DNA from: a virus
Virus record (IMG/VR): IMGVR_UViG_3300012971_000890
Length of the DNA stretch: 64,000 nt
Reading direction: 5' to 3' (one strand)
Shown: in pieces, positions 761 through 49,230 of the stretch
How positions within the stretch are numbered: position 1 is the first letter of the stretch
Layout: every line of letters begins with the position of its first letter
Made by a program: the position numbers and the translations under genes
The notes under the pieces: model-generated
Database searches by the model: none
What the model was told of the DNA's origin: nothing
The model's input: only the letters and a program-made list of their open reading frames with translations

Positions 761-770
761 CTATATAAAA
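761..770 (+). promoter_or_regulatory. CTATATAAA promoter-like motif (recurring plus-strand motif)
   Basis: ctatataaaa about 12 nt upstream of the 783 start; same core repeated upstream of other plus-strand genes. Confidence 0.4.
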
Positions 771-782
771 AGAGAGTAAACC

Positions 783-1646
783 ATGTCAGACTACAAGCAG
801 CTAGATGAATATATTGAAAACCTGGAAAAGCTCCTCGTTTTTCTGCGCGACTATCGAAAGCGTCAATTCGAGGACAGCCAGACAGGCGACTACCTGCGCG
901 AATTTCATCATCTGAAAGAACTCCTCCGTAGTAGCGCGTGGCCACCCGCAATCCTTCCCGAATTCATGTGCCGCCCCGACTCCGAAACGGACAAGCACGA
1001 GCGGGCCATGACCATCCTGGCAGGTCTGGTGCCCCTCGCGCAACTGAGTTTCCTCGACTACGGGTGCGGGGAAGGGCACGTCGCCTGGGAAGCCTCGCAC
1101 GCTGCCAAAAAGGTCGTAGGATTTGACATCGAAGAGCAATCCTGGGGCCACTTGGTCAAAGATAATCTGTACTTCACCACTAATTTCAACGATGTGAGGC
1201 AGCACGGCCCCTACGACATAATCCTGTTATATGACGTGCTGGACCACTGCGATGACCCTGTGGCGACTCTGAAGCAAGTCAAGGAAGTGCGTCGAGGAAA
1301 CGGTCCCATTTATGCCCACTGCCATCCCTGGGCCAGCCGCCACGCCACACATTTATATCACACCGTCAACAAGGCGTTTCTGCACCTTGTATTCAGCGAC
1401 AAGGAACTCCTCAAACTAGGGTTCAAAGGAATCAAGACCGCCAAACTGCTCAACAGCATGGAAACCTACCGCAAGTGGTTCAAGGACGCTGGCCTCCAGG
1501 TCAAAATGGAAGTCCCCCACCGAAAGACCATCGAAGACTTTTTCTTTCACGATCCCCTCATCAGCCGGCGACTCAAAGCCCACTGGCCGGGCAACCTGCC
1601 CCACAACGAAGTGAACCTGGAGTCGGTGGATTATATCGTCGCCTAA
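783..1646 (+). CDS. class I SAM-dependent methyltransferase
   Basis: Motif I LDYGCGEGH, VVGFDIEE, DIILLYDVLDH; 287 aa. Confidence 0.7.
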   Translation: MSDYKQLDEYIENLEKLLVFLRDYRKRQFEDSQTGDYLREFHHLKELLRSSAWPPAILPEFMCRPDSETDKHERAMTILAGLVPLAQLSFLDYGCGEGHVAWEASHAAKKVVGFDIEEQSWGHLVKDNLYFTTNFNDVRQHGPYDIILLYDVLDHCDDPVATLKQVKEVRRGNGPIYAHCHPWASRHATHLYHTVNKAFLHLVFSDKELLKLGFKGIKTAKLLNSMETYRKWFKDAGLQVKMEVPHRKTIEDFFFHDPLISRRLKAHWPGNLPHNEVNLESVDYIVA

Positions 1647-2300
1647 CTATTTGAAGTCCCCCAGCCCAAGTTTGTGCTTAATCTTGGGCATCGCACGCCA
1701 CAAATCGTAATCGTCGTACTCATCGACCGTGGGCACCCAATCCACCACGTCAACGAAATGGTCATCCGCGTAGGCGGCAATCCTGCGAGCTTCTTCCTTC
1801 GGGGACAGGTTGGGGAACATCAACCCCAGAATGCGCAGCTTGTTGGTTATCTCAATGCTATGGGTGGTCAGGTTGTCCACCAGTACCCAGGGGCAACAAT
1901 CCAGGTTTAGTTCCTTGGCGACCTGGCCCGGCTCTGTCTGGCCCGTGCTGAAGACACCCTGGATGTACGGCTCCCAATTCAAGCCCCGAATAACCTTTAG
2001 GGCGTAATCCTTGTCGCTGTGCGTGAGAATATACAGGTCAGCGAAGTCGGTTACGGCCTTGACGAACTTGGAGGAGCCGGGCCGAGGGAAGATGTACATA
2101 TCCTTGCCCTCCGCGTGGATTTGAAAAACGTCGGGGTAAGGGCTTTCACCCGGCACCACCAACTTGGCATACTGGCTGTTACCCGGCGAGTCCTTCAGCC
2201 AGCCGATCTCCATATTATGGACCAGAGTTTCGTCCATATCGCAGAAGACAAACCGCTTCGTACTTTCCAGTACCTCAAGCCACAACTTAAAGTCGCTCAT
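1647..2300 (-). CDS. FCP1/NIF-like HAD-family phosphatase
   Basis: FVFCDMDETLVHN (DxDxT) plus RPG...ILTHSDKDYA and VLVDN blocks typical of the NIF/CTD-phosphatase fold; start taken at the internal MSDFK. Confidence 0.6.
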   Translation of the reverse strand: MSDFKLWLEVLESTKRFVFCDMDETLVHNMEIGWLKDSPGNSQYAKLVVPGESPYPDVFQIHAEGKDMYIFPRPGSSKFVKAVTDFADLYILTHSDKDYALKVIRGLNWEPYIQGVFSTGQTEPGQVAKELNLDCCPWVLVDNLTTHSIEITNKLRILGLMFPNLSPKEEARRIAAYADDHFVDVVDWVPTVDEYDDYDLWRAMPKIKHKLGLGDFK

Positions 2301-2308
2301 TGATATAT

Positions 2309-2884
2309 TTAGGCCGTATCGTTCAATCCTTCGTGGGCAAATGCCACCCACTCCTCTACCGAACCAAGGTGGGCCTGAAGCATCTTCAGATACTTCACCG
2401 CCTGGTTGAACTGGCGCTTGCCCACCGAGATCGCCGCCAGCACCGCCCACTGCTGCGCCCGGTTATAAGTCGGCAACTTCTCGAACTCGGCGGCGTAGGC
2501 ATCCAACGCCGCGTAAACCTTCTGCCGCAACTGGTCCACCGGCACCTTGGTGTACTTGGCGTTATTCTGCAAATTGACCTCGAACTCACGGCGGAAGGAA
2601 TCTGTAGCATCGCCCAGGTCAAGGAGGTAACCCTTAGTGAGCCACTGGAGGGTCTTCTGAACCTTTTCCTTGACGTAGGGGTAACCGGCGTAGTTGAAGG
2701 TGGGCCGCTCGCTCATGCGATGGACGAGATCACCGACGTGTTCCACAACCGGGTTGAGGATGCCGCCGCCCAATGCAAACTGGACGCGCAACATGGCATG
2801 TTCCGGGCGGTCACGTTGCATGTCCGCCAGGTCAAAGAAATCCTCTTTGGTGGCTTCGTTTAGCATATCATAAATATGGGGCAC
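2309..2884 (-). CDS. hypothetical protein
   Basis: 191-aa ORF; diverges from tmk. Confidence 0.45.
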   Translation of the reverse strand: MPHIYDMLNEATKEDFFDLADMQRDRPEHAMLRVQFALGGGILNPVVEHVGDLVHRMSERPTFNYAGYPYVKEKVQKTLQWLTKGYLLDLGDATDSFRREFEVNLQNNAKYTKVPVDQLRQKVYAALDAYAAEFEKLPTYNRAQQWAVLAAISVGKRQFNQAVKYLKMLQAHLGSVEEWVAFAHEGLNDTA

Positions 2885-3664
2885 ACCCTAAATAACAACA
2901 TGGCAGACGGATTTTCAGAGTTCTTCCAAGAACACTGGCTGGTGGAGCATGAAGACGTAAAGCTCCAGGTGCGGGACATCCTCAAGCAGACCAAGCCGAA
3001 GACGAAACGGGGCCTGCTCATTGTGTTTGAAGGCATCGACGGAGCCGGCAAATCCACCCAGGTCGATCTCCTCAAAAAGTGGCTGGAGAAGGAGCAGAAT
3101 TATGCCGTGACCTATACCAAGTGGAATTCGGCCAAACCCATCAAGCCCATCACCAGCAAGCTCAAGGATAAGCGGGAACTCAGTCCCGTTCTGTACAGCC
3201 TGATGCACGCCGCCGACATGGTTCACCGCTACGAAAATACTATCCTTCCAGCACTGTCGGCCAACAAGATCATAATTTGTGACCGCTACCTCTACACCAG
3301 CATCGTCCGCGACAAGGCCCGTGGCGTGGACGTGGAGTGGCTGAACAAGGTCTACAAGGACATGCGCGAGCCGGACATTCTTTTCCACTGCGCCGTGCCC
3401 ATCCACGTCGCTTTCGGGCGGCTCGTCAAGGAGAAGGGCCTGACCTACTACGGCACCGGCAGCGATCTGAACTTGGCAGACAGCCGCGAGGAGAACTACA
3501 TCAAGTACGAAAACATCCTCGACAAACTCTATCGCAAAGTTCTGCCAGAAGTGAAGTCCTACCATAAGCTGGATATGCGCAAAAGCATCCCGGAAATTCA
3601 AGACGACATCCAAGACATTGTGAAGAAAAAGACCGGAATCGGCAAGTACGCGAAGGAGGAATAG
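2876..3664 (+). CDS. tmk: thymidylate kinase
   Basis: P-loop IVFEGIDGAGKST; DRY-like CDRYLYTS; 262 aa. Confidence 0.85.
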   Translation: MGHTLNNNMADGFSEFFQEHWLVEHEDVKLQVRDILKQTKPKTKRGLLIVFEGIDGAGKSTQVDLLKKWLEKEQNYAVTYTKWNSAKPIKPITSKLKDKRELSPVLYSLMHAADMVHRYENTILPALSANKIIICDRYLYTSIVRDKARGVDVEWLNKVYKDMREPDILFHCAVPIHVAFGRLVKEKGLTYYGTGSDLNLADSREENYIKYENILDKLYRKVLPEVKSYHKLDMRKSIPEIQDDIQDIVKKKTGIGKYAKEE

Positions 3665-3885
3665 TGCAGGACTTCTATCAGTACATGGCCGGACAACATC
3701 GAGGGATGCTGCAATGGATTGGCAGGGAACTGAACGACCTCCTAACCTCCTCGGACACCCGTTACCAGTTCAATATGGACACAATAGATCGACTCAACCG
3801 CATCGTAAATACAATCCGCTCAGCCCTGAGCAGTGGCGGCGGTGGCGAACCCCCACCCAAAGGCGGGCACGCGGGCATGACCTGA
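3664..3885 (+). CDS. small hypothetical protein (GTG start)
   Basis: 73-aa ORF directly after the tmk stop; weak support. Confidence 0.2.
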   Translation: MQDFYQYMAGQHRGMLQWIGRELNDLLTSSDTRYQFNMDTIDRLNRIVNTIRSALSSGGGGEPPPKGGHAGMT

Positions 3886-3912
3886 GCGGGCGGCGAGTGC
3901 TGACCCGTGCGG

Positions 3913-4437
3913 TCAGGACAAACGACTGGCAACTTGATCCTTGTCGGACAAAATATAATCACCATCCCTAGTCTTCGGCCACTCAATGTTCAACGTCGGG
4001 TCGGCGTAATACACGCTCTCCTCCAGGCTGGGTTCGTAGCACCCACCCTGGGCATAAATTAGGATGGTGTTGTCGGTGGCCGCAAAGAACCCGTGGCCGC
4101 AGTGGGGCGGGACGAATAACTGTCGTGGGGCTTCTGGGTTCAGCCAGACCCCGAACCACTTCTTGTAGGTAGGTGAGGTCTTGCGCAAGTCAACCACCAC
4201 GTCCCATAGCTCACCGGAAACGCAGGTGCAGACCTTGAAGAAGGGAACCTTGTGAATCCCGCGAATGACGTTCCGGTGCGAGTAGGACCAGTTGACCTGG
4301 GTGGCGGGCACGAAGATGGGGGTGACCTCGCCAGAGCGGTTGAAGTTGTAGATTTCTTGGAAAAAGCCCCGGTGATCGTCGTAGCGATCCGGCTCGACAA
4401 GGTAGGCGTCCTTCACGGGCGTTTCGATGAGTTTCAT
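3913..4437 (-). CDS. rmlC: dTDP-4-dehydrorhamnose 3,5-epimerase-like cupin (RmlC family)
   Basis: DDHRGFFQE, IRGIH, GELWDVVVDLRKTSPTY, PPHCGHGF, YADPTLNIEWP all match RmlC blocks. Confidence 0.8.
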   Translation of the reverse strand: MKLIETPVKDAYLVEPDRYDDHRGFFQEIYNFNRSGEVTPIFVPATQVNWSYSHRNVIRGIHKVPFFKVCTCVSGELWDVVVDLRKTSPTYKKWFGVWLNPEAPRQLFVPPHCGHGFFAATDNTILIYAQGGCYEPSLEESVYYADPTLNIEWPKTRDGDYILSDKDQVASRLS

Positions 4438-4447
4438 TAGACTCCTG

Positions 4448-4458
4448 CATATATAAGG
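4448..4458 (+). promoter_or_regulatory. CATATATAAGG promoter-like motif
   Basis: TATATAA core about 35 nt upstream of the 4491 ATG; AGGAGG RBS follows. Confidence 0.35.
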
Positions 4459-4490
4459 CAGCCATCCCTAATAGAGTAGGAGGTTCAATT

Positions 4491-4685
4491 ATGGCATGGA
4501 TTATTGTTATAGGAATTCTCGTCGTTGGCATCATTCTGTTCGCCATTTTCACATTGCCGAAGCCAGAACCATGCTGCGACTGCAAGGAAAAATGCGGGGA
4601 AGACTGCCCGTGCGCCGGCGAGTGTGGGACTCAGTGCGTCCTTTGCTTCCCACCGCAGCCACCAGCTTACCCACCGATTCGTTAA
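4491..4685 (+). CDS. small membrane-anchored cysteine-rich protein
   Basis: N-terminal TM helix then CCDCKEKCGEDCPCAGECGTQCVLC; strong RBS. Confidence 0.45.
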   Translation: MAWIIVIGILVVGIILFAIFTLPKPEPCCDCKEKCGEDCPCAGECGTQCVLCFPPQPPAYPPIR

Positions 4686-4698
4686 GCAGGAGGGTTAA

Positions 4699-5277
4699 TT
4701 GATTACGAGTTGGACCGTCAAGCCGGCGTTTCAAGAGCAAAGCACGACCTATTACCAGGCCACGGCGATGGGCGACCCGCACATCGCCGGCTTTGACGGG
4801 GAGGTTTTCGACTTCCACGGAAAGGCCGGCTGCTGCTATTGCTTTTACGCCGACGACGATCTCATAGTCAATGCCAAACTGGCGAAAGCACCGCCCCCAC
4901 ACCTGCCCGACGCAACGATTATTGCCGAAGTCTTCGTCATGCACGGCGACGACACCGCCCATTATAACATGAACGGTAACGGGCACCCCGCGAGCGTGCG
5001 GGTGTTTGGCCCGAACAGAGTGATGGTCGTGCGGGCATGGTCCAAAGACAACCGCCAGGTCACCCACGGCATCCGGCGGGCCGGGGCGTGGGTGGCTCAG
5101 CAGCGACCCAGGGTTTTTGAAAACCTCGACCTGAGCCTGGAGGTCCAGCCCGCCGGGGAACCCACCGGAGTAATCGGCCAAACACTGCTCCCCCCAGAAA
5201 GGCGTCGTCGCAACGAAGACTTCGAGGTTTCCGATCTGTCTGCCCTGATTGAGAGGAACCCCGATGAGCGTTTATAA
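4699..5277 (+). CDS. hypothetical protein (TTG start)
   Basis: 192-aa ORF; AGGAGGG RBS 5 nt upstream. Confidence 0.45.
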   Translation: MITSWTVKPAFQEQSTTYYQATAMGDPHIAGFDGEVFDFHGKAGCCYCFYADDDLIVNAKLAKAPPPHLPDATIIAEVFVMHGDDTAHYNMNGNGHPASVRVFGPNRVMVVRAWSKDNRQVTHGIRRAGAWVAQQRPRVFENLDLSLEVQPAGEPTGVIGQTLLPPERRRRNEDFEVSDLSALIERNPDERL

Positions 5278-5923
5278 ACCCGGCGATGCCGTCCACGGCG
5301 AGTTCGTCACCAACAGTTTGGCCACCGGGGCAGCTACCGATGCCGACTTTGCCCCGGTCGGCACGCTCACGCGAAATGGCACAGACGATGGCGCGGTCAC
5401 CGTGCAGGTGCTACACCAGGACACAGGACGATACCATTTCTTCTTCACCATTCCCGCGACTTACGCCGCAGGCGACTCGGTGGTAATCACCATCAATGCC
5501 ACGCTCAACGCAATTCTCGCCAAGGCGGTCGTCTGGTCCGAACAACTGCGGGCGCACAACACCGATGACCTCTACGCCCTCCTGGCGGCTATGAACCCGC
5601 CTCCGAACTGGTCCGCCCTCAATATCGACCTGTCCGGGCGCATGGCCATTCAAAGCCGCATTACCAAGAACACGGCGCTCAGCAATTTCTTGTTCTTAAT
5701 GAACGACGGAACGGGCAATGCTCTACCGGGCCTCAATGTAACTGCCACCCGCACCATCGACGGCTCGGCGCTCGCTGCGTGTGCCAATACGGTCACCGAG
5801 GTCGGCAGTGGCTACTACAAGATCAACCTAGCGGCCAGCGACCTAAACGGCAACTGCATCGGGTTGAAGTTCAGCGCCGCCGGGGCCAAGGACAGCGATA
5901 TTACGATAGTGACAGTGCCGTAA
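5264..5923 (+). CDS. hypothetical virion-associated protein (distantly related to 12829-13290)
   Basis: GAGG RBS; Thr/Ala/Gly-rich beta-type composition; shares a TVxVxHxDTGxY..FTIxAT-like pattern with the 12829 gene. Confidence 0.45.
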   Translation: MSVYKPGDAVHGEFVTNSLATGAATDADFAPVGTLTRNGTDDGAVTVQVLHQDTGRYHFFFTIPATYAAGDSVVITINATLNAILAKAVVWSEQLRAHNTDDLYALLAAMNPPPNWSALNIDLSGRMAIQSRITKNTALSNFLFLMNDGTGNALPGLNVTATRTIDGSALAACANTVTEVGSGYYKINLAASDLNGNCIGLKFSAAGAKDSDITIVTVP

Positions 5924-5932
5924 GGGAGGAAC

Positions 5933-6982
5933 ATGAGTTTACGAATGATCGACGGGTTCGACCACTATAACTGGTCGCAGATGATGCGAAAGTGGAGTAC
6001 CTATGTCACGGGCTACATCGGCAACCCCGTGATCGGCCCTGGCAACGGTCGCTTCGGGGGCGGGGCGATGTACAATGGCGCGGCGGGTGGCCAGTACGCG
6101 CAACAATCGGTCTTTAAGACGTTAGACCCCCAATCCACCTGGATTTTAGGCGTGGCCTTTAAGTGGACCGGCGGCAACGTCTCCGCGTCCACAGTCCTCC
6201 TGGGCGTGTACGATGTTAACAGCAAGCAGGTCGATGCCCGCCTAAACTCCGACAATACGATGTCAGTCACCAGAGCAGGAACGGTCTTGGGGACAACCAG
6301 CTTCGTCATGAGTTCGGGCGCGTGGTACTATATCGAACTGAAAACGACCATCCACCCCACCGCCGGCAGCTTCGACCTGCATATCAACGGCGTATCACGC
6401 ACATCTGCCACCAACGTCAACACTCGCAACACGGCCAACAATACAGCGAACCAAGTCAGCATCGGCTTCCCGGACCAGACCAACACCGGCAGCATCACGA
6501 CGCTTGCCTTCGATGATTTTTATGCCTGCGACGGCAACGGCACCGTCAACAACAACTTCCTGGGCGATGTGAGAGTCGAGACACTTTATCCCAACGCGGT
6601 CGGCGCTACCACGCAGTTCACACCTACCAGTGGCACCAACTTCGGGTGCGTCAATGAAAATCCCATGAATGACGACGCGAGCTACGTTTACGGCAACACG
6701 GTGGGGAATATTGACACTTATAAGATCAGCGCGCTGTCCAGCATACCGCAAACCATCATGGGCACGCAGATTAACTCCACCGCCAGGAAGGACTCGTCGG
6801 GAAACCGGGCGATGGAGTTGGTAGTCCGATCTGGGGCTGCCAACTACCTCGGTTCTGACAACTACACAAATGCAACCTACGCGACGTACAACCGCATTGA
6901 CGAGACGGACCCGGCCACCAGCGCCCCTTGGACATCCCCTGGTATTGCCGCCGTCGAGATCGGACACAAACTAAGCATCTGA
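5933..6982 (+). CDS. structural paralog 1 of a 4-member tandem family (tail/fibre-associated candidate)
   Basis: MSLRMIDGFDHY N-terminus; conserved TRNTAN, NNFLGD, ARKD, RIDETDP..APWT blocks shared with the 6992, 8478 and 9528 genes. Confidence 0.65.
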   Translation: MSLRMIDGFDHYNWSQMMRKWSTYVTGYIGNPVIGPGNGRFGGGAMYNGAAGGQYAQQSVFKTLDPQSTWILGVAFKWTGGNVSASTVLLGVYDVNSKQVDARLNSDNTMSVTRAGTVLGTTSFVMSSGAWYYIELKTTIHPTAGSFDLHINGVSRTSATNVNTRNTANNTANQVSIGFPDQTNTGSITTLAFDDFYACDGNGTVNNNFLGDVRVETLYPNAVGATTQFTPTSGTNFGCVNENPMNDDASYVYGNTVGNIDTYKISALSSIPQTIMGTQINSTARKDSSGNRAMELVVRSGAANYLGSDNYTNATYATYNRIDETDPATSAPWTSPGIAAVEIGHKLSI

Positions 6983-6991
6983 GAGGAAAAC

Positions 6992-8005
6992 ATGCTGCGA
7001 TTTATGGATGGTTTCGATCACGTCGCTCTGGCAAACGTTGCCCAAAAATGGACCAATGCCAACTTGACACAGGTGTTCCTGCAAACCCCAGGACGGTTTG
7101 GCGGCTCGTACCTCCACTTCCACCAGGGCAACTCGTATGTGGGGAAGACCCTCGACAACCAAGCATCATGGGTGGTGGGCTTTGCTCTGCGCGTCGGAGT
7201 CGGTTATTCCGTTATCACCCCCTTATTCCAACTATTGGACGCCGGCACCATCCAGGTTGAGTTGTGGATTAAGAATGATAACACCCTGTTTGTTGCCCGC
7301 AACGGCACGGCGGTCACTGGCAGCAACTTTGCGTTTACCCCCGGCATCTGGCATTACGTCGAATACAAAGTCACCATCAGCGCCAGCATCCCTGCGAACT
7401 CATGGAAGGTCCGGGTGGATGGGCAGGACGTAATAAACGTACCAGCCGGCCAATCGTCCAAGAACACGGCGAACAGCACTGCCAATCAGATTAAATTTGG
7501 TCCCATAAACCAGAACGACGACCCCGATTACGACGACATATACATCTGCGACAGTCAAGGCACTACCAACAACGATTTCCTGGGCGATACAAAAGTCGTA
7601 ACGATGTTTCCCACATCGGCGGGCACCACAACCCAATGGACCCCACTTTCGGGTGCCAATTATACCAATGTAAACCAGACCCAACCCGACGACGATGCTT
7701 CTTACGTCTATACCTCCACGCCTGGGCAGACCGACACCTACCTTTGTGGGGACATTACCGATAACCCGGTCAACATCTTCGGAGTACAGACCAACCTTTA
7801 TGCCCGCAAAGACGACGCCGGAGTGAGAACCGTATCCAAGGTAATACGTTCGGGCGGGACAAATTACCCAGGGGCGGCGGTGGACAACTTGGCAGCCAAT
7901 TACGTCTTTTACACCGAAATAGATGAAAAAGACCCAGGCACCGGAGCCGCGTGGACAAAGGCTGGTTTCAATGCCGCAGAGTTCGGAGCAACCATCATCG
8001 CGTAA
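6992..8005 (+). CDS. structural paralog 2
   Basis: MLRFMDGFDHV; same conserved blocks (NDFLGD, YARKDD, EIDEKDPGTGAAWT). Confidence 0.65.
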   Translation: MLRFMDGFDHVALANVAQKWTNANLTQVFLQTPGRFGGSYLHFHQGNSYVGKTLDNQASWVVGFALRVGVGYSVITPLFQLLDAGTIQVELWIKNDNTLFVARNGTAVTGSNFAFTPGIWHYVEYKVTISASIPANSWKVRVDGQDVINVPAGQSSKNTANSTANQIKFGPINQNDDPDYDDIYICDSQGTTNNDFLGDTKVVTMFPTSAGTTTQWTPLSGANYTNVNQTQPDDDASYVYTSTPGQTDTYLCGDITDNPVNIFGVQTNLYARKDDAGVRTVSKVIRSGGTNYPGAAVDNLAANYVFYTEIDEKDPGTGAAWTKAGFNAAEFGATIIA

Positions 8006-8014
8006 AGGAGGGTA

Positions 8015-8449
8015 ATGGCTGTATTCACCAAGTTCTATCAATTCGTCCAAGACGTTGCCAATAAGGTCCACAACCTGGGCACCGATAACTTGAAAATGAT
8101 GTTGACCAACACCGCCCCGGTGTTAACTAATAAAGTCAATGGGGATTTGACCGAGATCACGGCGCAGGGTGGTTACACCGCCGGGGGCGCAACGGTAACC
8201 ATCTCCTCCAGTATCCAAAGCACCGGCATTTATCGACTCATTCCGTCCGCCGACGTTGTATGGAACGGGACGGGGAGCGGTTTCGGACCCTTCCGGTACA
8301 TCGTCCTATACAACAGCGTTGCCGGACCTGATGCCACCCACCGCCCGCTCGTCGCCGTATGGGACTTCGGCAGCAACGTCACCATCAATAGCGGCGATAC
8401 CTTCACTGTCAGCCTCGATAAAGTAAACGGCATCATTACGCTGCAATAA
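8015..8449 (+). CDS. hypothetical structural protein
   Basis: 144-aa ORF embedded in the paralog array; RBS GGAGGG. Confidence 0.5.
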   Translation: MAVFTKFYQFVQDVANKVHNLGTDNLKMMLTNTAPVLTNKVNGDLTEITAQGGYTAGGATVTISSSIQSTGIYRLIPSADVVWNGTGSGFGPFRYIVLYNSVAGPDATHRPLVAVWDFGSNVTINSGDTFTVSLDKVNGIITLQ

Positions 8450-8450
8450 A

Positions 8451-8462
8451 GCTATATAACAG
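8451..8462 (+). promoter_or_regulatory. GCTATATAACAG promoter-like motif
   Basis: Identical 12-mer recurs at about 15493; sits 16 nt upstream of the GTG start at 8478. Confidence 0.45.
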
Positions 8463-8477
8463 CGAAGGAGGTACATC

Positions 8478-9518
8478 GTGGCGCTCAGATTCGTTGACGG
8501 ATTCGATCATTACACAACGCCGACTCAAGCACTCAGAAAGTGGACGGCCAATTACACTAGCTACCCTGGAACCTTTGGCGGCACAAGCACTGGTCGTTTT
8601 AGTGGCGGTTCCTACCATATAAATAACTGCTATTCCGGCAACCCCCTTATAAAGACCCTCGACGCCCAGCCAACCTGGATACTAGGCACGGCCCACAAAT
8701 TCAACATGATAACCACGGGCGTTCAAGTATTCGCCGTGCTGGACGGGAACACGTTACAAATGGATGTTCGGCAGAATGCCGATGGCACGATGAGCGTCAC
8801 TCGTAACGGCACGGTCCTGGGCACAACCCCGTCTGCCGTGGGCCTCGCCAACCAGTGGAATTACTACGAGTTCAAGACCACCATTCACCCCACGGCGGGC
8901 GCTTATGAACTACGAGTCAACGGTCAAAGCCTGCTTTCTGCCACCAACGTCAATACCAGGAACACGGCCAACAGTTCCGCCAACCAGATACAGTGCGCCA
9001 GTTGGGCCACCAGTTACAACGGCGGTAGCGGCGTCTACGATTTCGATGACTTCTATGCCTGCGATGGAACGGGAACAAATAACAACGATTTTCTGGGGGA
9101 AATGAGAATTGAAACCCTGTATCCGAACTCACCGGGGACCAACACAAACTTCACCCCAAACCCCGCCGGGGCTAATTACGCCAACGTCAAGGAAACCCCT
9201 CCCGACGATGACGCCTCGGTGGTCATGGGCGGCACCTTCGGTTTGATGGATACCTACCTCATGAGCCATTTGAGTGGCACACCCACCAGCATCAAAGGCA
9301 CGATGCTCACCATCATGGCTCGAAAGGACAACGCGGGCACCAGAGCGGTGTCCCCTGTGATTCGCTCAGGAGGCAATAACAACACCGGGGCCACCATGTA
9401 CCTGGGGGCGTCCTATGTGTGCTATATGCGAATTGACGAAACGGACCCAGGGACCGGGGCAGCGTGGACGGCGGCAGGGGTAAACGCGGTAGAGTGCGGG
9501 CAAAGTGTAACCATATGA
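8478..9518 (+). CDS. structural paralog 3 (GTG start)
   Basis: MALRFVDGFDHY; blocks TRNTAN, NNDFLGE, ARKDNAGTR, RIDETDPGTGAAWT. Confidence 0.65.
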   Translation: MALRFVDGFDHYTTPTQALRKWTANYTSYPGTFGGTSTGRFSGGSYHINNCYSGNPLIKTLDAQPTWILGTAHKFNMITTGVQVFAVLDGNTLQMDVRQNADGTMSVTRNGTVLGTTPSAVGLANQWNYYEFKTTIHPTAGAYELRVNGQSLLSATNVNTRNTANSSANQIQCASWATSYNGGSGVYDFDDFYACDGTGTNNNDFLGEMRIETLYPNSPGTNTNFTPNPAGANYANVKETPPDDDASVVMGGTFGLMDTYLMSHLSGTPTSIKGTMLTIMARKDNAGTRAVSPVIRSGGNNNTGATMYLGASYVCYMRIDETDPGTGAAWTAAGVNAVECGQSVTI

Positions 9519-9527
9519 AGGAGGAAC

Positions 9528-10550
9528 GTGTCGCTGAGGTTTGTGGACAGTTTCGACCATTACGCCACCGCCAACGGCGCGCAAAAATGGACCAGCGTGG
9601 ACCATTTCACGATTGTGTCACCTGGCAGGTTCGGCACCGGCCAGTGTATGCAACTGTCTATGAACTGGCCGAACGTAACGAAAACGCTGGACGCCCAGCC
9701 AACCTGGATCATCGGCTTTGCCATAAAACTTAGTGCCTGGGTCAATGGGCCGACGCTACTAATCGTCCTCCAAGACGGCGCAAACTATCAGGCCGACCTC
9801 CGACTCAACCCCGATGGCACACTGTTCGTAACCCGAAACGGGACGGCTGTTACCGGAGGGACCAGTACCCGCTCTTTGCGTCTAAACACTTGGTACTACG
9901 TCGAGATGAAATGCACCATAGCGACGAGCATCCCGGCTAATTCCTGGCAGGTGCGAGTCAACGGTACGCAAGTCATCAGCGTGACGGCGGGCCAGAGTTC
10001 CCAGGTTACAGCCAACGCTACCGCCAACACGGTGAGGATCGGCGGGAACATGGGTACTTCCGCCTTCAACGCCTGGTTTGACGACCTTTATATGTGCGAC
10101 GGGCAAGGCAGCGCCAATAACGATTTTCTGGGCGACCTCAAGATCGTAGCCGTCTTGCCCAACGCCGCCGGCACCCTGACGCAGTGGGGTTCCCTGAGCG
10201 GACCCAACTACACCAACGTTAACCAACAGACGCCCGACGACGACACGTCCTACGTTGTCAGTTCCACGCCAGGTCAGATCGACACCTACCTTACCCCCGG
10301 CATCAGTGAAACACCCACGAATATTATTGGCGTACAGGCGGGCCTATACGCCCGCAAGGACGACGCTGCCACCCGAACGTTGACCAAGGTAATAAGGTCT
10401 GGCGGGGTTGCCTACACCGGCCTCAACCTTGCTATGACCACCACTTACGCTTATTACCTGGACATCAACGAGACGGACCCTGCCACCGGGTCGGCATGGA
10501 CCAAGGCGGGCGTCAACGCGGCTGAAATTGGAGTGCAGGAGATTGCATAA
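9528..10550 (+). CDS. structural paralog 4 (GTG start)
   Basis: MSLRFVDSFDHY; blocks NNDFLGD, YARKDDAATR, INETDPATGSAWTKAGVNAAE. Confidence 0.65.
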   Translation: MSLRFVDSFDHYATANGAQKWTSVDHFTIVSPGRFGTGQCMQLSMNWPNVTKTLDAQPTWIIGFAIKLSAWVNGPTLLIVLQDGANYQADLRLNPDGTLFVTRNGTAVTGGTSTRSLRLNTWYYVEMKCTIATSIPANSWQVRVNGTQVISVTAGQSSQVTANATANTVRIGGNMGTSAFNAWFDDLYMCDGQGSANNDFLGDLKIVAVLPNAAGTLTQWGSLSGPNYTNVNQQTPDDDTSYVVSSTPGQIDTYLTPGISETPTNIIGVQAGLYARKDDAATRTLTKVIRSGGVAYTGLNLAMTTTYAYYLDINETDPATGSAWTKAGVNAAEIGVQEIA

Positions 10551-12829: not shown

Positions 12830-13290
12830 TGCGGGTAGTGAAGCAAGGCACAGCCAGGAACGTCATGGTCTTCATGACCCAAAGTGCCGACCATATTTCA
12901 GGCGCACCTGGCCTGACCCTGACCATCACCGCGAGTAAAGACGGCAGTGCCTTCGCATCCGTCACACCCACAGTCACAGATCGAGCCGCCGGTTGGTACT
13001 CCCTAGCCCTCACCGCCAGCCACACCGATACCCTGGGAGATTTCGCGTTGCATATCACCGGGACTGGCGCTGACCCCGCCGATTTGCTGATGCAAGTGGT
13101 CGCTTACGATTTCGCTGATGTGGTACGGCTGGGCCTCACGGCCTTGCCGAATGTCGCCCAGGGGACCGCAGGGGCGGTGCTAACGTCCGGCGCAGGCACC
13201 GGCCAACTAAATGTCGCCAGTGGTGTGGCCGACGCCAAAATAAAAACCATCAACACCGCCCTCTACGGCCCCCTGATCGGCTCTTCCTAA
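12829..13290 (+). CDS. hypothetical virion-associated protein
   Basis: ATG overlaps the fibre gene stop; composition similar to 5264-5923. Confidence 0.5.
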   Translation: MRVVKQGTARNVMVFMTQSADHISGAPGLTLTITASKDGSAFASVTPTVTDRAAGWYSLALTASHTDTLGDFALHITGTGADPADLLMQVVAYDFADVVRLGLTALPNVAQGTAGAVLTSGAGTGQLNVASGVADAKIKTINTALYGPLIGSS

Positions 13291-14186
13291 GTTTGCGCCT
13301 TGCGGATGATCTCCGCAATATCCGCCACGGCCTGCTTGTACTTGTCCGGCGTCTCGATGCACTTGGACAGGCTGCCGTAATGCTCCTCCAAGCACTCCAG
13401 CAACAGCTTCTTGATCGCCGGCTCGTCCGGCCCCCACGGCAGGGCGGACTCCTCGTACAGCTTCTCCAGTTCCTTCTCCTTGGTGGCGAAGTAGTCCCGA
13501 ATCTGCTGCTCGGTCCACTCGCCCCGGCGGATCGACTTCAACTGCTCCCGGTTGCGCTGGAGATCGAGGTCACCCTCGGCCATAATCATCTCAACTTCGT
13601 TGAGGAGGCGCACGACATGATATGCGAACTTCAAATCATAGCCGTGTTCCTCGATCATGGCCTGGCGTTTGCTTGACTCGCGCTCCTTCTTGCCCATCTT
13701 GTTGACCTGCTGATAGGCGTAGCCCTTGAAGGTATGCCAGCACTTCTTGTGCAGGAATATCTTGCGCTTCTCGCGGACCATCGTGCCCACGCGGGTAATA
13801 TGCAGCACGCAATTATCCGGCGTGAACAGGGAGTCAATCATGTTGGGATTATTTTGCATCACCAACTGAAAGTAGTCCACGATGTTATAGCAACACAGGT
13901 CATACTCCCGGCCCTTGCCACCCATCGCGTCGGTGTCGTTCAGGTGGTGTTCCTGATATTGAGCGAAGCGGTGCTTCTGGGTGCCGAACCCGATGATCTC
14001 GCCGCGCAGATGCGGGAAAATTTCCTCCTTGGGCGGGATGCACCAGGAGTAGATGTCCATGTCGGACGTGTCGCTGGACACGCCGTAGGCCACGCTGCCC
14101 ATCAGCGATTCGTAGTGAATGTTGTTGGGCAGCCAGGGCGGCGGGTGCGCAATCTTCTTCTCGGCCAGTTCCCGAATGTAGCTCAT
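13287..14186 (-). CDS. Pol-beta superfamily nucleotidyltransferase (RlaP/Nuc-transf-like or CD-NTase-like)
   Basis: GSVAYGVSSDTSDMDIY (GS...SDxD NTase motif); later acidic EYDLCCYNIVD; 299 aa. Confidence 0.55.
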   Translation of the reverse strand: MSYIRELAEKKIAHPPPWLPNNIHYESLMGSVAYGVSSDTSDMDIYSWCIPPKEEIFPHLRGEIIGFGTQKHRFAQYQEHHLNDTDAMGGKGREYDLCCYNIVDYFQLVMQNNPNMIDSLFTPDNCVLHITRVGTMVREKRKIFLHKKCWHTFKGYAYQQVNKMGKKERESSKRQAMIEEHGYDLKFAYHVVRLLNEVEMIMAEGDLDLQRNREQLKSIRRGEWTEQQIRDYFATKEKELEKLYEESALPWGPDEPAIKKLLLECLEEHYGSLSKCIETPDKYKQAVADIAEIIRKAQT

Positions 14187-14252
14187 CTCTACCTCCTACC
14201 CTCAATTCTACCACAACGCCCCTAAATAGACACAGCCGAAAGGAGAAGGTTC

Positions 14253-14843
14253 ATGCTGACCTTTGTGGAATTCGCCAAAGCTGCCGACGAGAGCCAGATC
14301 GACAGCCTGTACACCAAGGCCCACACCGCCGTCGAAATCGTCCGCATGTACCAGCCCGAACTGCTGGCCGACATCGCCACCATCGCCAACCTGTCGAGCG
14401 GTGCCTACGGCGTCTATAACTCCGGGGAGAACAAGAAGATGCTACCACCCGACAAGGAAAAGCAACTGGTATATTACGGGGCGGTACGGCGGCATAATCT
14501 CGACATGATCCCCAAAAAGACCCTGATGCAATATTACCCGGACCTCCACCCGGAGCAGATTCAGGACAGCGACACCATCCACGTCAACGTCCACCGCATC
14601 ATGCAGGAAAGCGACAGCGACCTGGAAGCCATCTTGGAGATCGCCTCTACCATCGTCCACGAATGCACCCACGAGAAAGAACGGGAGGCCACCGGCCAGA
14701 CCTCCGAGGTAGGGCCTGTGCGGGCCGAGCAGGCGTTCATGGCATGGGCGAGGCAGAATATGAACGCCCTGACCCGCCGCTTCCCACAACTGCAAGGCGA
14801 CGTGGTGGGGAGGAAAGGCCAACTGCCGGCAGGGAGGGTATGA
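14253..14843 (+). CDS. hypothetical protein with HExxH (HECTH) motif
   Basis: RBS GGAGAAGG; IVHECTHEKE possible metallopeptidase motif. Confidence 0.45.
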   Translation: MLTFVEFAKAADESQIDSLYTKAHTAVEIVRMYQPELLADIATIANLSSGAYGVYNSGENKKMLPPDKEKQLVYYGAVRRHNLDMIPKKTLMQYYPDLHPEQIQDSDTIHVNVHRIMQESDSDLEAILEIASTIVHECTHEKEREATGQTSEVGPVRAEQAFMAWARQNMNALTRRFPQLQGDVVGRKGQLPAGRV

Positions 14844-15490: not shown

Positions 15491-15492
15491 AG

Positions 15493-15504
15493 CTATATAA
15501 CAGG
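15493..15504 (+). promoter_or_regulatory. GCTATATAACAG promoter-like motif
   Basis: Same 12-mer as at 8451; 16 nt upstream of the 15520 ATG. Confidence 0.45.
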
Positions 15505-15519
15505 GAACCCAGGAGGGAT

Positions 15520-16058: not shown

Positions 16059-16059
16059 C

Positions 16060-18100: not shown

Positions 18101-18108
18101 ATTACCTC

Positions 18109-18117
18109 CTGTTTCCA
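18109..18117 (-). promoter_or_regulatory. TATAAT-type -10 element (minus strand)
   Basis: CTATAATGG about 12 nt upstream of the RBS of the 18100 gene, directly after the upstream terminator. Confidence 0.3.
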
Positions 18118-18123
18118 TTATAG

Positions 18124-18162
18124 ACAAAAAAAGAAGCCGGTGCTTTGGTAAGCACCGGCTTC
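18124..18162 (-). terminator. rho-independent terminator (also hairpin on plus strand)
   Basis: GAAGCCGGTGC-loop-GCACCGGCTTC perfect 11-bp stem followed by T7 on the minus strand. Confidence 0.65.
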
Positions 18163-20284: not shown

Positions 20285-20296
20285 CCTATATAGAGG
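20285..20296 (+). promoter_or_regulatory. CCTATATAGAGG promoter-like motif
   Basis: Upstream of the 20298 ATG. Confidence 0.35.
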
Positions 20297-24267: not shown

Positions 24268-25230
24268 TTATAAAACCACTTCACGGTCGCTGAACGCCGA
24301 CAGGATGCGCACGCGGCCCTCGCCTGCCTGCACGCCCCCAATGATGGCGGCGGTGGGCAGTTGCCGCAGCACGGTGGGCGTGTTCTCAGGATGCACTGCC
24401 ATGATGAAACCGATGCCGCAGTTGAAGATGCGGTACATCTCCTCGTCCGTCACCCCCTTATTATATATGTCCCGGAATATTTGCTGGGGCTGGAGTTGGT
24501 GTTGCCGCCCGATGCAAATGTCAACATTTCGCGCCGGCTTGAATTTCGTGTAAGCGCCCCCGGTGACGTGCAGTGCGCCGTGGGCGATTTCAATGATCGG
24601 GAAGCAGGCGTCCCAATACAGCGCGGTCGGCATCAAGAAATCATCCGGCCATTCCCCGTTAGGCAGGAACGGGTCTTGGGCGTGCAGTTCACGGACCTTG
24701 GTAAAGCCGTTGGAGTGCAGGCCGGTGCTGGCCACCCCGATCAAATCATCCCCTTCGAGGTATTGGTTGACGGTGTAAATAGCGACCAGGCCCGACACGG
24801 TGAGGCTCACGTCCATCGCGTCGGTCATGTCGTTAATGCTCGTCTCGCCGCCGGTCATGGCGATGTGGCGTGGCTTGCAGTGCTTCGCCAGGGCCTCCAC
24901 GACGCCCACCACGGCCTCGTCGTCTTCCCAGGGCAGGGTGATGTGGTTTTGGAGTTTGAGGGGCTGCGCCCGGTACATCAGCAGGTCATTGAGGTTCATT
25001 GCCAGGGCGTCCAGGGCGGCGTACTCCCAGGTCCGGGCCTCCCAATGAAAGTAACCCTTGGTGCCGATCCCGTCCGTATGGTCCACATGGCCGCAGGTCT
25101 GCACGAGGTTGCTGCTCAAAAAGAAAACCGCGTGGTCGCCGTAGTCCACCACGCGAAGGAACGGGGTGTCCCAGGTGGTCCTGATAATTTCCAGTACCCG
25201 ACTGGTGCTGGGTTTAGTGGGGTCATACAT
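24268..25230 (-). CDS. purM: phosphoribosylformylglycinamidine cyclo-ligase (AIR synthetase)
   Basis: AMTGGETS, GLHSNGFT, FNCGIGF; GGAG RBS plus ATG at 25230. Confidence 0.85.
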   Translation of the reverse strand: MYDPTKPSTSRVLEIIRTTWDTPFLRVVDYGDHAVFFLSSNLVQTCGHVDHTDGIGTKGYFHWEARTWEYAALDALAMNLNDLLMYRAQPLKLQNHITLPWEDDEAVVGVVEALAKHCKPRHIAMTGGETSINDMTDAMDVSLTVSGLVAIYTVNQYLEGDDLIGVASTGLHSNGFTKVRELHAQDPFLPNGEWPDDFLMPTALYWDACFPIIEIAHGALHVTGGAYTKFKPARNVDICIGRQHQLQPQQIFRDIYNKGVTDEEMYRIFNCGIGFIMAVHPENTPTVLRQLPTAAIIGGVQAGEGRVRILSAFSDREVVL

Positions 25231-25239
25231 ATATAACTC
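25228..25239 (+). promoter_or_regulatory. CATATATAACTC promoter-like motif in the purM/25271 divergent region
   Basis: TATATAAC core about 30 nt upstream of the 25271 ATG. Confidence 0.35.
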
Positions 25240-26236: not shown

Positions 26237-26248
26237 ACTATATACTCA
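26237..26248 (+). promoter_or_regulatory. GACTATATACTC promoter-like motif
   Basis: About 30 nt upstream of 26278; AAGGAG RBS. Confidence 0.35.
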
Positions 26249-40219: not shown

Positions 40220-40238
40220 AGTGGTGCCCCGATTTGAG

Positions 40239-40311
40239 AGCGGGAGAAGGGATTTGAACCCTCACTCTCAGCGTTGGCAACGCCGCGCTTTAACCGTTAA
40301 GCTACTCCCGC
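40239..40311 (-). tRNA. tRNA-Gly (anticodon GCC)
   Basis: Acceptor GCGGGAG/CTCCCGC, U73; anticodon loop TTGCCAA; T-arm GGTTCAAATCC. Confidence 0.8.
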
Positions 40312-40326
40312 ATTCAGTTATATAGT

Positions 40327-48213: not shown

Positions 48214-48315
48214 AGGATTCCCCCAAAATGGTGCTACATCGGTAAATCTCCCTTGGGCAAAGGAACGTTGCTTGCGAGGGCCGCTAAGTAAATATTAACC
48301 GCCCTCAGAGAAATA

Positions 48316-48582
48316 TCAAGAGCGGATCGAGCGCTGCGCATCTTCGAGCCAGCCCTGCTCCTTTAATCCCTGGCACTGGCTGCACAGCTTGTAGGGCGTG
48401 AAAAGGTAGTTCTCCGGCAACACTTCCGTCGCCACCCCGCAGGCACCGCAGTAGTAATACATATCGGAGCCGGCTGGCAACTTCTGGTTTTCGATGTGTT
48501 CGATTTGAGCGGCGCTCTCCACACGCTTGGCATACTGCCGGATCGCTTCTTCCTTCGCGTATTCCAGATCGGTCTTGGCCAT
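48316..48582 (-). CDS. zinc-ribbon hypothetical protein
   Basis: CGACG..CSQC; internal ATG. Confidence 0.4.
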   Translation of the reverse strand: MAKTDLEYAKEEAIRQYAKRVESAAQIEHIENQKLPAGSDMYYYCGACGVATEVLPENYLFTPYKLCSQCQGLKEQGWLEDAQRSIRS

Positions 48583-48649
48583 ATGATTGAGGGGGTTGGA
48601 GGACGACTGACGACCGACCCTAACCTTATAACGAGGTCGGGCCGGGATG

Positions 48650-49201
48650 TCAAGAAGGCAAAACGCATTTAATCTTTTTTTCAGATATGGCGTCGATCTG
48701 GCGGGTGAACTCATCCACAAGCTTGAGCAATTCCTGGTCCAAGCGGCGTTCCTCGTCCTCGGTCAAAAGCGACTTCAGCCGCCGCTTGTCCTTCTGGTGC
48801 TGCTTCTTACCTTCATGGCGAATATTGCGCATCGCCACCCGCGACTCCTCGGCCAACTTGCGCACCTGGGCGACGACTTTTTCAATCTGCCCGGAATCCA
48901 TGCGGGGCAGGTTGGCGTACACGCAGTCGTCACCGCCGTAGGTGCTGATTCCCTGGGCGTCCAGGGCCTTGCGGATGTCCTTGCCGGCTTCGCGGTCGTG
49001 GGGGCGAATGGAAACCGCGTTATGCGGTGCCGGCATGACATATGCAAGCTTGCCGATGGCCTCACTGGAGCCTTTGAATTTCACCCGCAGGCTCTCGATG
49101 AGGGTGATGGTGTCGCCGCCTCGTAAATTGAAAATCGCGTCCTTGAAGTGCGTCAAACTGCGCTCCATCTTGGCACGACAAATTTGAATTAGCTCTTTCA
49201 T
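48650..49201 (-). CDS. frr: ribosome recycling factor
   Basis: VRKLAEESRVAMRNIRHEGKK and LTEDEERRLDQELLKLVDEF blocks match RRF; ATG at 49201. Confidence 0.8.
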   Translation of the reverse strand: MKELIQICRAKMERSLTHFKDAIFNLRGGDTITLIESLRVKFKGSSEAIGKLAYVMPAPHNAVSIRPHDREAGKDIRKALDAQGISTYGGDDCVYANLPRMDSGQIEKVVAQVRKLAEESRVAMRNIRHEGKKQHQKDKRRLKSLLTEDEERRLDQELLKLVDEFTRQIDAISEKKIKCVLPS

Positions 49202-49216
49202 TATTGGCCCACCCTG

Positions 49217-49230
49217 GATATTATAATATG
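49217..49230 (+). promoter_or_regulatory. GATATTATAATATG promoter-like element
   Basis: TATAAT-containing; about 25 nt upstream of 49256; AGGAGA RBS. Confidence 0.35.

Follow-up and report, generated by a model that had tools for sequence, protein, structure and literature searches.

The question raised by this locus is whether a short AT-rich string that recurs ahead of genes is a promoter and, if so, which polymerase would read it. In the window (the whole stretch of 64,000 nucleotides analysed here), the recurring CTATATAA motif is a genuine element. The strings that a sequence-only reading had pointed out are present and enriched, but their invariant part is only the palindromic hexamer TATATA, often with C before and A after it (usual form cTATATAa), and the (C/A)AG tail described as a general feature is confined to the copies at 761, 8451 and 15493. 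TATATA occurs 13 times in the window against 1.89 expected, CTATATA nine times (1.18 expected) and TATATAA seven times (1.04 expected); for each of them, 0 of 100 shuffles held as many. Ten of the 13 copies lie outside called genes, where only 10.4% of the bases are found (binomial p=3e-8), and three lie inside genes, at 24462, 26023 and 36327; the motif is rarer inside genes than between them, not equally frequent in both. With 8 copies against 0.82 expected, TATATA is also the top enriched intergenic hexamer of the window. Its sites are the following.

762..767, unstranded: TATATA box cCTATATAAa in the 37-nt divergent gap between 134-745 (minus) and the methyltransferase gene 783-1646 (plus)
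4450..4455, unstranded: TATATA box CATATATAA between the dTDP-sugar epimerase gene 3913-4437 (minus) and a 64-aa gene 4491-4685 (plus)
8453..8458, plus: TATATA box GCTATATAACAG between the co-directional 8015-8449 and 8478-9518, 7 nt before AGGAGG
15494..15499, plus: TATATA box GCTATATAACAG between 14840-15490 and 15520-15714, 11 nt before AGGAGG
20287..20292, unstranded: palindrome CTATATAG, 5 nt before ATG 20298, no SD
25230..25235, unstranded: TATATA copy overlapping the ATG and the SD-ATG spacer of 24268-25230 (minus)
26239..26244, unstranded: TATATA box ACTATATAC between 25915-26208 (minus) and the HNH endonuclease gene 26278-26817 (plus)
40319..40324, minus: TATATA box aaCTATATAAc, 7 nt upstream of the mature 5' end of tRNA-Gly(gcc) 40238-40311 (minus)
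59072..59077, unstranded: TATATA copy overlapping the 3' end of tRNA-Glu 59075-59149 (minus)
60654..60659, plus: TATATA box 5 nt before ATG 60665 of the glycosyltransferase-like gene 60665-61381 (plus), no SD

Boxes 762, 4450, 20287 and 26239 each occupy a divergent gap. Box 762 is 15 nt from ATG 783 and, on the minus strand, 7 nt from the SD of the 745 start; box 20287 is, on the minus strand, 77 nt upstream of the SD-led ATG 20209 of the release-factor gene; box 26239 is 33 nt from the plus-strand start and 30 nt from the minus-strand start. The distance of 12-35 nt to an RBS, as earlier proposed, does not describe these sites exactly: box 8453 is about 7 nt and box 15494 is 11 nt from its SD, boxes 4450 and 26239 are separated from theirs by about 22-24 nt, no clear SD was found on the plus side of 762, and there is none at 20287. 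The copy at 25230, once thought to precede a plus-strand gene, overlaps the start of 24268-25230 (minus) and no credible plus-strand gene follows it; as a promoter it is doubtful. ATG 60665 is the start used in the public gene call. Among the genes downstream of boxes are those for a methyltransferase, a dTDP-sugar epimerase, a release factor, an HNH endonuclease, a glycosyltransferase and a tRNA, a functional mixture in which no temporal class is evident and which does not bear out the suggested restriction to structural and late genes.

The core is unchanged in the relatives L013, L014 and L015, which are 72-83% identical to the window in nucleotide sequence, while adjacent intergenic bases diverge and carry indels. 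At 762, CTATATA is invariant in L013 between diverged flanks with indels; at 4450, CATATATA is kept in L013 though an 8-nt indel adjoins it; and at 8453, CTATATA is invariant in all three, with a spacer that varies in sequence and length. TATATA is used in relatives across 30-57% GC, which probably have different hosts; the lower-GC ones (L050, L052, L062, L063) are partial contigs. When the window, the L055 extension, L050 and L052 are pooled (113.6 kb), TATATA is found 19 times in intergenic and 4 times in coding sequence, and no other AT-only hexamer is as intergenic; for the AT-only hexamers taken together the intergenic share is 22.6% (Fisher p=1e-9), and ATATAT, of the same composition, has no intergenic bias (9 versus 24; Fisher p=1e-4). 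With one gene caller used on every locus, TATATA is intergenic versus coding 18 to 3 in lineage loci and 3 to 52 in unrelated phage loci (p=1e-11), supporting its specificity to this soil megaphage lineage.

The spacing of the hexamer is that of a -10 element. Where an SD is absent, the gap to the start codon, a proxy for start-site distance, is 5-6 nt in the window and in relatives. TATATA-N5-ATG occurs in the window at 20298 and 60665, both starts without an RBS, and the N5 gap recurs at L050 7081. Divergent start codons surround a single box as CAT-N6-TATATA-N6-ATG at L050 8245 and L052 9989 and as CAT-N5-TATATA-N5-ATG at L062 903, and are 19 or 17 bp apart, respectively; start codons in relatives are anchored by aligned protein N-termini (MxxFKQWL). 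TATATA also stands 7-11 nt upstream of several RBSs and 7 nt upstream of tRNA-Gly. Most genes here still have strong GGAGG-type SDs, and leaderless genes are a minority. Upstream of the boxes no -35 is conserved, only a weak C at -1, and matches to bipartite sigma-70 promoters are not enriched (6 versus 8.9 expected); the bipartite class was rejected, there being no TTGACA-like -35 element 16-18 bp upstream. Position 6 of the hexamer is A in all TATATA boxes, never T, and the canonical sigma-70 -10 hexamer, defined by A2 and T6, was rejected on this base. Registers shifted by 2 read TATAAC, TATAAA, TATAAG, TATAGA, TATACC and similar, mostly without T at position 6, and no TATATA register gives the A(-11)/T(-7) pair. 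This pair is needed by primary sigmas (PMC10268837, PMC7598289), and T(-7) is among the two best-conserved promoter bases (PMC10268837).

We propose that TATATA (cTATATAa) may be the -10-type core of a -35-less promoter class in this megaphage lineage. RNA polymerase would melt the DNA at the hexamer and start about 6-7 nt downstream. The products would be leaderless mRNAs with the ATG 5-6 nt after the box, mRNAs with a 5' end at or just before an SD that the box precedes by 7-11 nt and, from box 40319, a tRNA-Gly transcript whose first base is the mature 5' end or adjoins it. The hexamer reads the same on both strands, so that a single copy between divergent genes could fire both ways. The promoter-like behaviour suggested by the sequence-only reading appears sound, the element being intergenic, conserved in diverged relatives, lineage-specific and placed like a -10 before start codons; judged by its geometry, TATATA very probably has promoter function, and the position of the start and bidirectional firing are likely on the same grounds. 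With a start 7 nt past box 8453, the transcript would begin within the SD or at its border, which counts against this scheme. Bidirectional bacterial promoters that work by symmetry (Warman et al., 2021, as described in PMC10268837) use one symmetric -10 region for divergent transcription, as TATATA would do; the divergent start codons of the relatives, 17 or 19 bp apart, come close to the 18 bp that usually separate the starts there. In that description the element is a 7-mer, TAnnnTA, with reciprocal -11A/-7T, whereas the perfect palindrome here has 6 bp and carries A at position 6.

TATAAT elements coexist with these boxes.

18117..18122, minus: TATAAT box right after the strong terminator hairpin 18162-18133, 6 nt before the SD of 17876-18100 (minus)
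49217..49228, unstranded: palindrome ATATTATAATAT, TATAAT on both strands, between the ribosome-recycling-factor gene 48650-49201 (minus) and 49256-49795 (plus)
60192..60197, minus: TATAAT box 5 nt before ATG 60186 of the HNH gene 59704-60186 (minus), no SD
61925..61930, minus: TGATATAAT, extended -10 type, 35 nt upstream of 61347-61889 (minus)

The site at 49217 had been counted as a copy of the motif and is a different element. A split by strand, TATATA before plus-strand and TATAAT before minus-strand genes, had also been proposed. The minus-strand TATAAT boxes at 18117, 60192 and 61925 are confirmed, but the rule is not strict because TATATA also precedes minus-strand features, namely tRNA-Gly (40319) and, just beyond the window, two genes (L055 6583 and 7193); furthermore, the TATAAT at 49222 precedes a plus-strand gene. 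The TATAATA boxes of the window fit the TAnnnTA form known from bidirectional bacterial promoters, as that form is given in the description cited above. Since position 6 of TATATA is never T, we treat the two elements as distinct. They are interspersed in the tRNA and translation-gene region, and the TATAAT at 60192 has the same distance (N5) to its SD-less start as the TATATA boxes, so that a single reader for both is possible. Hybrid TATATAAT boxes occur at L055 7193, L057 5919, L052 3939/3959 and L050 12703; together with the shared distance, they would fit one reader of loose consensus, contrary to our proposal.

The window encodes a candidate reader of its own, a sigma-70 family protein whose gene, noticed in the sequence-only reading, we confirm as divergent and conserved in relatives.

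63177-63872, minus: divergent sigma-70-family gene, 231 aa, with sigma2, a short linker and sigma4

The protein matches PHROG 351 and Pfam Sigma70_r4 (28.7 bits, above cutoff, E=9.6e-7); Sigma70_r2 is below cutoff (18.2 bits), and against the NCBIfam subfamily models it is under cutoff for all. Its sigma2 and sigma4 regions align to SigA chains. Region 2.3/2.4 has YIGQALKHAMTV where YATWWIRQAITR is expected, and the -35 helix has VTRQNVQY in place of VTRERIRQ. The family is kept in relatives at 47-57% identity, with one member on a 669,797-bp contig. Because it is divergent, this sigma is the leading candidate reader of TATATA: host core RNA polymerase carrying it may read these boxes, and the coexisting TATAAT(A) boxes would be read by the host primary sigma. 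The assignment of the reader is the least secure part and is made tentatively; the explanation as a whole, -35-less TATATA promoters served by phage sigma and host core, we put forward with comparable reserve. The phage sigma keeps a recognisable region 4, yet TATATA comes without a -35-like element, which speaks against this reader.

T4 late promoters carry TATAAATA, which is read by gp55 with gp33 and the gp45 clamp. They too are AT-rich, -10-only promoters of a large phage without a -35, but the likeness to them that had been suggested is not upheld: TATAAATA has only two matches in the window, 8618 and 50772, both inside genes, and the window sigma has ordinary sigma-70-type sigma2 and sigma4 domains. 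A second comparison is with phiEco32, whose sigma gp36 reads the single element tAATGTAtA, with starts 6-8 bp downstream (PMC8948821). In both cases a phage sigma-70-family protein goes with a single AT-rich -10 element and no -35, and the spacing to leaderless starts here would imply the same start distance. The systems differ in that AATGTATA has 0 matches in the window, gp36 lacks the region 4 that the window sigma keeps, and the window element is a perfect palindrome that would be used in both directions.

Other readers, or no polymerase at all, have to be weighed against the phage sigma. In the first place, several bacterial phyla routinely make leaderless mRNAs from -10-only promoters, and the reader could be the host primary sigma holoenzyme, with TATATA a variant of a loose TATAWW family and the phage sigma serving other promoters. 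Leaderless promoters of Actinobacteria and Deinococcus-Thermus have a TANNNT -10 a few nt before the start codon, no SD and a weak or absent -35, much as here; they have T at position 6, and leaderless genes are a minority in our phage. The common position of TATATA and TATAAT before leaderless starts (N5 at 20298, 60665 and 60186), the hybrid boxes of L055, L057, L052 and L050 and the interspersion of both types in the tRNA/translation-gene region agree with such a reader. We nonetheless find it rather unlikely: every TATATA box has A at position 6, and most shifted registers offer no T. In L050 and L052, moreover, TATATA is intergenic versus coding 7 to 0 and TATAAT 8 to 10; TATATA has no intergenic bias in unrelated phages; and the motif persists in relatives of 30-57% GC, probably with different hosts.

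The lineage specificity and persistence over a wide GC range would also suit a promoter of a phage-encoded RNA polymerase with genes beyond the 74 kb examined, in a lineage that reaches 670 kb, and a start immediately after the box would retain the 8453 SD in the transcript. Early genes of jumbo phages that encode a multisubunit polymerase carry short AT-rich motifs with their centre near -10 (PMC7598289), which resemble ours in being lineage-specific and belonging to very large phages; they are, however, about 10 nt long and read by virion polymerases, whereas here we see a sigma gene, arguing for host core enzyme, and no polymerase gene in about 74 kb. Neither beta/beta'-like nor single-subunit RNA polymerase genes were found among the proteins scanned in the window or in the gene lists of relatives, and the tight 5-6 nt gap to SD-less starts would be expected of leaderless transcription from a sigma-type -10. 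We regard this polymerase as improbable. Least of all do we expect the motif to be something other than a promoter, that is, a site for a regulator or DNA-bending protein, an RNA-level signal (AU-rich translation enhancer, nuclease site) or AT-rich filler. An AU-rich enhancer could act at those boxes that come as close as 3-7 nt to an SD, such as 8453 and, on the minus strand, 4450. Palindromes are typical of dimeric DNA-binding proteins; in L052, two TATATA boxes lie within a 44-bp perfect palindrome. Against this, one would expect a specific regulator to bind a palindrome longer than 6 bp, ATATAT of equal composition lacks the intergenic bias, either orientation is used at a fixed 5-6 nt from SD-less start codons, and TATATA also precedes a tRNA, which is untranslated.

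Returning to the phage sigma as reader, palindromic TATATA, with A at -7, might be a code carried by the lineage itself across hosts of 30-57% GC and read by a minimal megaphage sigma without region 1.2, with the conserved W-W dyad lost and the -35 helix rewritten; bidirectional firing would be built in, with leaderless mRNA pairs from gaps as short as 16 nt. We consider this possible though not probable. We know of no cultured hosts for soil megaphages, which keeps their gene regulation obscure. With a short motif marking transcription units, operon and start-codon calls could be corrected, for leaderless starts such as 20298 escape Prodigal-style callers or are set in the wrong place; TATATA also offers a marker by which this lineage can be recognised. 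Should a -10 element without T(-7) indeed be read by the phage sigma, it would be a natural case of altered base specificity in the sigma2 pockets.

The strings that the sequence-only reading reported upstream of plus-strand genes, and took for a candidate promoter, are present at the positions it quoted. The conserved unit is the TATATA palindrome, often preceded by C and often followed by A; this core of the proposed longer motif stands, but the full GCTATATAACAG is common to 8451 and 15493 only. Two further sites drop out: that at 49217 is actually ATATTATAATAT, a TATAAT palindrome, and that at 25228, proposed as a plus-strand promoter, overlaps the ATG and the spacer between Shine-Dalgarno sequence (SD) and ATG of a minus-strand gene, with no credible plus-strand gene after it.

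Cut down to TATATA, the observation is real and significant. Against dinucleotide-preserving shuffles (n = 100), the window holds 13 TATATA where 1.89 are expected, nine CTATATA (1.18 expected) and seven TATATAA (1.04 expected), counts that 0 of 100 shuffles reach. A similar frequency inside genes had been named as what would speak against a promoter, and this is not what is seen: in our gene model, which matches the public gene calls wherever those exist, 10 of the 13 TATATA copies lie outside genes, whereas intergenic sequence makes up just 10.4% of the window (p=3e-8). In an unbiased k-mer comparison, TATATA is the top intergenic hexamer (8 vs. 0.82 expected), and the leading intergenic 7-mers are TATAATA, CTATATA, and TATATAA. 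We then pooled the window, the 10 kb past its right end (L055), and two distant relatives (L050, L052). In this set TATATA is 83% intergenic (19 intergenic, 4 coding), compared with 22.6% for all AT-only hexamers combined (Fisher p=1e-9) and 9 intergenic vs. 24 coding copies for ATATAT, which has the same composition (p=1e-4); TATAAT is evenly split (22 vs. 22). As a control, a single self-trained gene caller was run on every locus, with seven unrelated phage loci (L001-L007, tail-fibre-protein matches too diverged for footprinting) as negatives. TATATA was 18 intergenic vs. 3 coding in the lineage loci, and 3 vs. 52 in the phages that have only a tail-fibre-like protein in common with it (p=1e-11). 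Confinement to intergenic DNA thus characterises this lineage rather than phages at large.

The hexamer is also conserved. In three relatives from one metagenome scan (L013, L014, L015), 72-83% identical to window 136-13592, CTATATA is invariant at the counterparts of 762, 4450 (CATATATA at the latter), and 8453, while the flanking intergenic bases show substitutions and indels. More distant relatives were found via homologues of the 251-aa protein encoded at 16374-17129; their loci are non-syntenic with the window, yet carry the same hexamer:

L050 and L052, 44% GC: 7 of 7 TATATA intergenic
L062, 49% GC: 2 of 2 intergenic
L063, 30% GC: 4 of 5 intergenic, grouped in a single divergent gap
L057, 55% GC, carrying the sigma gene: 2 of 2 outside real genes, one between two tRNAs

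In L052, a gap between divergent genes contains a perfect palindrome of 44 bp (3925-3968, GACTACTCCTATATAATGGAACGTTCCATTATATAGGAGTAGTC) with two TATATA boxes, each followed on its far side by GGAG and then ATG.

The spacing is most telling in several genes that lack an SD and begin almost directly after a box:

Window, start at 20298: TATATA-GAGGC-ATG
Window, start at 60665: TATATA-CGATC-ATG (same start in the public gene call)
Window, start at 60186: TATAAT-ATGGT-ATG (same start in the public call)
L050, start at 7081: TATATA-CCAAC-ATG
L050 8245 and L052 9989: CAT-atctgt-TATATA-cctatt-ATG
L062 903: CAT-ggtaa-TATATA-gtcat-ATG, with a different opposite-strand partner gene

As judged from the alignment of N-termini in the 251-aa family at MxxFKQWL, which rules out a start further upstream, the box-adjacent ATGs of this family are the true starts. 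A -10 hexamer leaves 5-6 nt before position +1. Because this is the gap seen here, genes with TATATA 5-6 nt before an SD-less ATG are best read as leaderless. An archaeal TATA-box reading was rejected on the same spacing, since the gap would then be 25-30 nt. In the relatives, two divergent genes share one palindromic box, and their start codons are separated by 17 or 19 bp; symmetry-based bidirectional promoters have a similar arrangement, with 18 bp (PMC10268837).

Elsewhere the spacing is longer. The gap from box to SD is 7-11 nt at 8453, 15494, 762 (minus strand), and L055 6583, and that from box to start 20-35 nt at 4450 (plus strand) and 26239 (both directions); with these gaps and the SD-less starts, the 12-35 nt to the ribosome-binding site given for every site does not hold. 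The box at 40319 lies 7 nt upstream of the mature 5' end of tRNA-Gly. Two more minus-strand tRNAs have a box resembling a -10 element that stops 6-7 nt short of their mature 5' end:

51322, minus strand: CATAAATA-gatcatt before tRNA-Ala(cgc)
55532, minus strand: GATAGAAT-ggcgat before tRNA-Arg(cct)

We rejected a general rule that tRNAs start at such boxes, as most directly follow the stop codons of upstream genes. No conserved -35 element was found upstream of TATATA boxes, and matches to bipartite sigma-70 promoters are not enriched in the window (6 vs. 8.9 expected).

Intergenic enrichment is likewise seen for TATAAT, which frequently takes the form TATAATA:

Before minus-strand genes: 18117, 27527, 38437, 49220, 51657, 60192, 61925, 62775
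Before a plus-strand gene: 49222

The proposed division into plus-strand TATATA and minus-strand TATAAT survives as a tendency but not as a strict rule, because TATAAT precedes the plus-strand gene at 49222 and TATATA precedes minus-strand features (tRNA-Gly and two genes in the L055 extension). The two hexamers also show a regional bias: by manual count, TATATA boxes outnumber TATAAT boxes six to one in 1-27 kb, while 27-74 kb has four TATATA and about nine TATAAT boxes. The perfect palindrome ATATTATAATAT (49217-49228) separates divergent genes and reads TATAAT on either strand; it has the look of an ordinary TAnnnTA-type bidirectional promoter. Both hexamers are equally far from leaderless start codons, and so work alike. 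They differ at the sixth position, which is A in TATATA; primary sigmas read a -11A/-7T pair (PMC10268837, PMC7598289), and no shifted register of TATATA restores it. Comparing the 61925 TATAAT box with one of the TATATA boxes of L057 was set aside, the downstream genes not being homologous.

What reads the box? The window's own sigma-70-family protein (63177-63872, minus strand, 231 aa) consists of sigma2, a short linker, and sigma4. Region 4 is primary-sigma-like, with the -35 recognition helix VTRERIRQ changed to VTRQNVQY, and YATWWIRQAITR in region 2.3/2.4 reads YIGQALKHAMTV, so that the protein has lost the conserved W-W dyad. It falls under the cutoff of each NCBIfam subfamily model, and family members in relatives are 47-57% identical. 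The phiEco32 sigma gp36 reads a single element, tAATGTAtA, and transcription starts 6-8 bp downstream of it (PMC8948821). Given this precedent of a divergent sigma paired with a non-canonical, lineage-specific box lacking a -35, the phage sigma is the leading single candidate reader of TATATA, a plausible link that we infer only. Against it count the retention of region 4 without a matching DNA element, the existence of hybrid TATATAAT boxes, and the mixed functions of the downstream genes: methyltransferase, sugar epimerase, PHROG-2448 paralogues, release factor, HNH endonuclease, glycosyltransferase, and tRNA. This mixture also contradicts the suggested specificity for structural genes. Reading by the host primary sigma is a live alternative, and reading by a phage-encoded polymerase (PMC7598289) is another.

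An unrelated 58-kb IMG/VR phage (UViG_3300045391_002373, 60% GC) encodes a SigA-like sigma of 281 aa, 25% identical to the window's. Its 13-mer TAGGGTATATAAT occurs exactly three times (6362, 8462, 16571) and nine times at <=3 mismatches vs. about one expected, and is probably that phage's own promoter. As evidence for a link between TATATA and sigma it was rejected, since the sigma is ordinary and the box ends in canonical TATAAT.

The window has 57% GC, densely packed genes, and SDs of GGAGG type, and also codes for thymidylate kinase and sugar-modifying enzymes. Translation functions are abundant (window 26778-60650 and L055 1-9872): the window carries 13 tRNA genes, every one of them on the minus strand, and the adjoining 10 kb seven more, together with genes or gene fragments for aminoacyl-tRNA synthetases of both classes (I and II), a release factor, a ribosome recycling factor, and PTH2. 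Other features are:

5933-9518: three tandem PHROG 2448 paralogues (349, 337, 346 aa; the 8453 box precedes the third), then two Laminin_G_3 proteins; probably a tail-fibre or receptor-binding cassette
18181-19287, minus strand: ParB-like protein, 368 aa, EGNRR motif
19420-20209, minus strand: release factor
30536-33445, minus strand: ORF of 887-969 aa with Major Vault Protein shoulder (Pfam E=7.7e-26) and Vault_3 repeat (2.5e-10), unusual in a phage
48650-49201: ribosome recycling factor
L055 6472-6566: ARAGORN tRNA-Pro(agg), unusually long at 95 nt, which may contain an intron or insertion
L055 8773-9062: non-coding stretch of ~290 nt, conserved in L057 1-268

This last stretch, just past the window's right end and upstream of an AlaRS fragment and the sigma gene, starts GGGCGGG and includes GGTTCGATTCCCGCGCCGCCCA, which looks like the acceptor stem and T arm of a tRNA or tmRNA; it has no ARAGORN or Rfam match. 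The release-factor gene appears to need an RF2-type +1 frameshift: from ATG 20209, with a good SD, 23 codons lead to an in-frame TGA (CTT TGA G), and the +1 frame continues into the release-factor ORF to give 262 aa with a GGQ motif. Because its stop-recognition motif PPT is of the PxT type of RF1 (best NCBIfam match prfA), frameshifting at UGA would respond to host RF2 rather than to the phage release factor itself.

Megablast with window 1-20000 gave no match among GenBank phages, and no close relatives were found in IMG/VR. Contigs identical or near-identical to the window come from soil metagenomes, and a contig of 669,797 bp encodes both a sigma homologue (56% identical) and ribosomal protein L12; the window is thus part of a very large phage, in a lineage that includes megaphages. 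The ParB-like protein, searched alone and as an alignment, had no matches on genome contigs. Its homologues (43% identical) lie on bacterial contigs with N_methyl and SBP_bac_10 proteins and large kinase-WD40 proteins, a hint, no more, of a Planctomycetota host.

Intergenic restriction, conservation in relatives, and -10-like spacing uphold the initial view of the motif as a promoter element, and TATATA boxes are well supported, if indirectly, as candidate promoters. Functionally they resemble the -10-only phage promoters (T4 late, phiEco32 middle/late) and the symmetry-based bidirectional promoter, but lie outside the sequence classes of both. They also lack the -7T and the -35 element of ordinary sigma-70 promoters. 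The suggested likeness to the T4 late promoter fails, as TATAAATA occurs only twice in the window, both times inside genes, and AATGTATA of the phiEco32 class is absent from it. No description matching TATATA turned up in a search of the literature on phage promoters. Single-element promoters specific to a phage, promoters firing in both directions, and leaderless genes all have individual precedents; the TATATA element belongs to an uncharacterised megaphage lineage.
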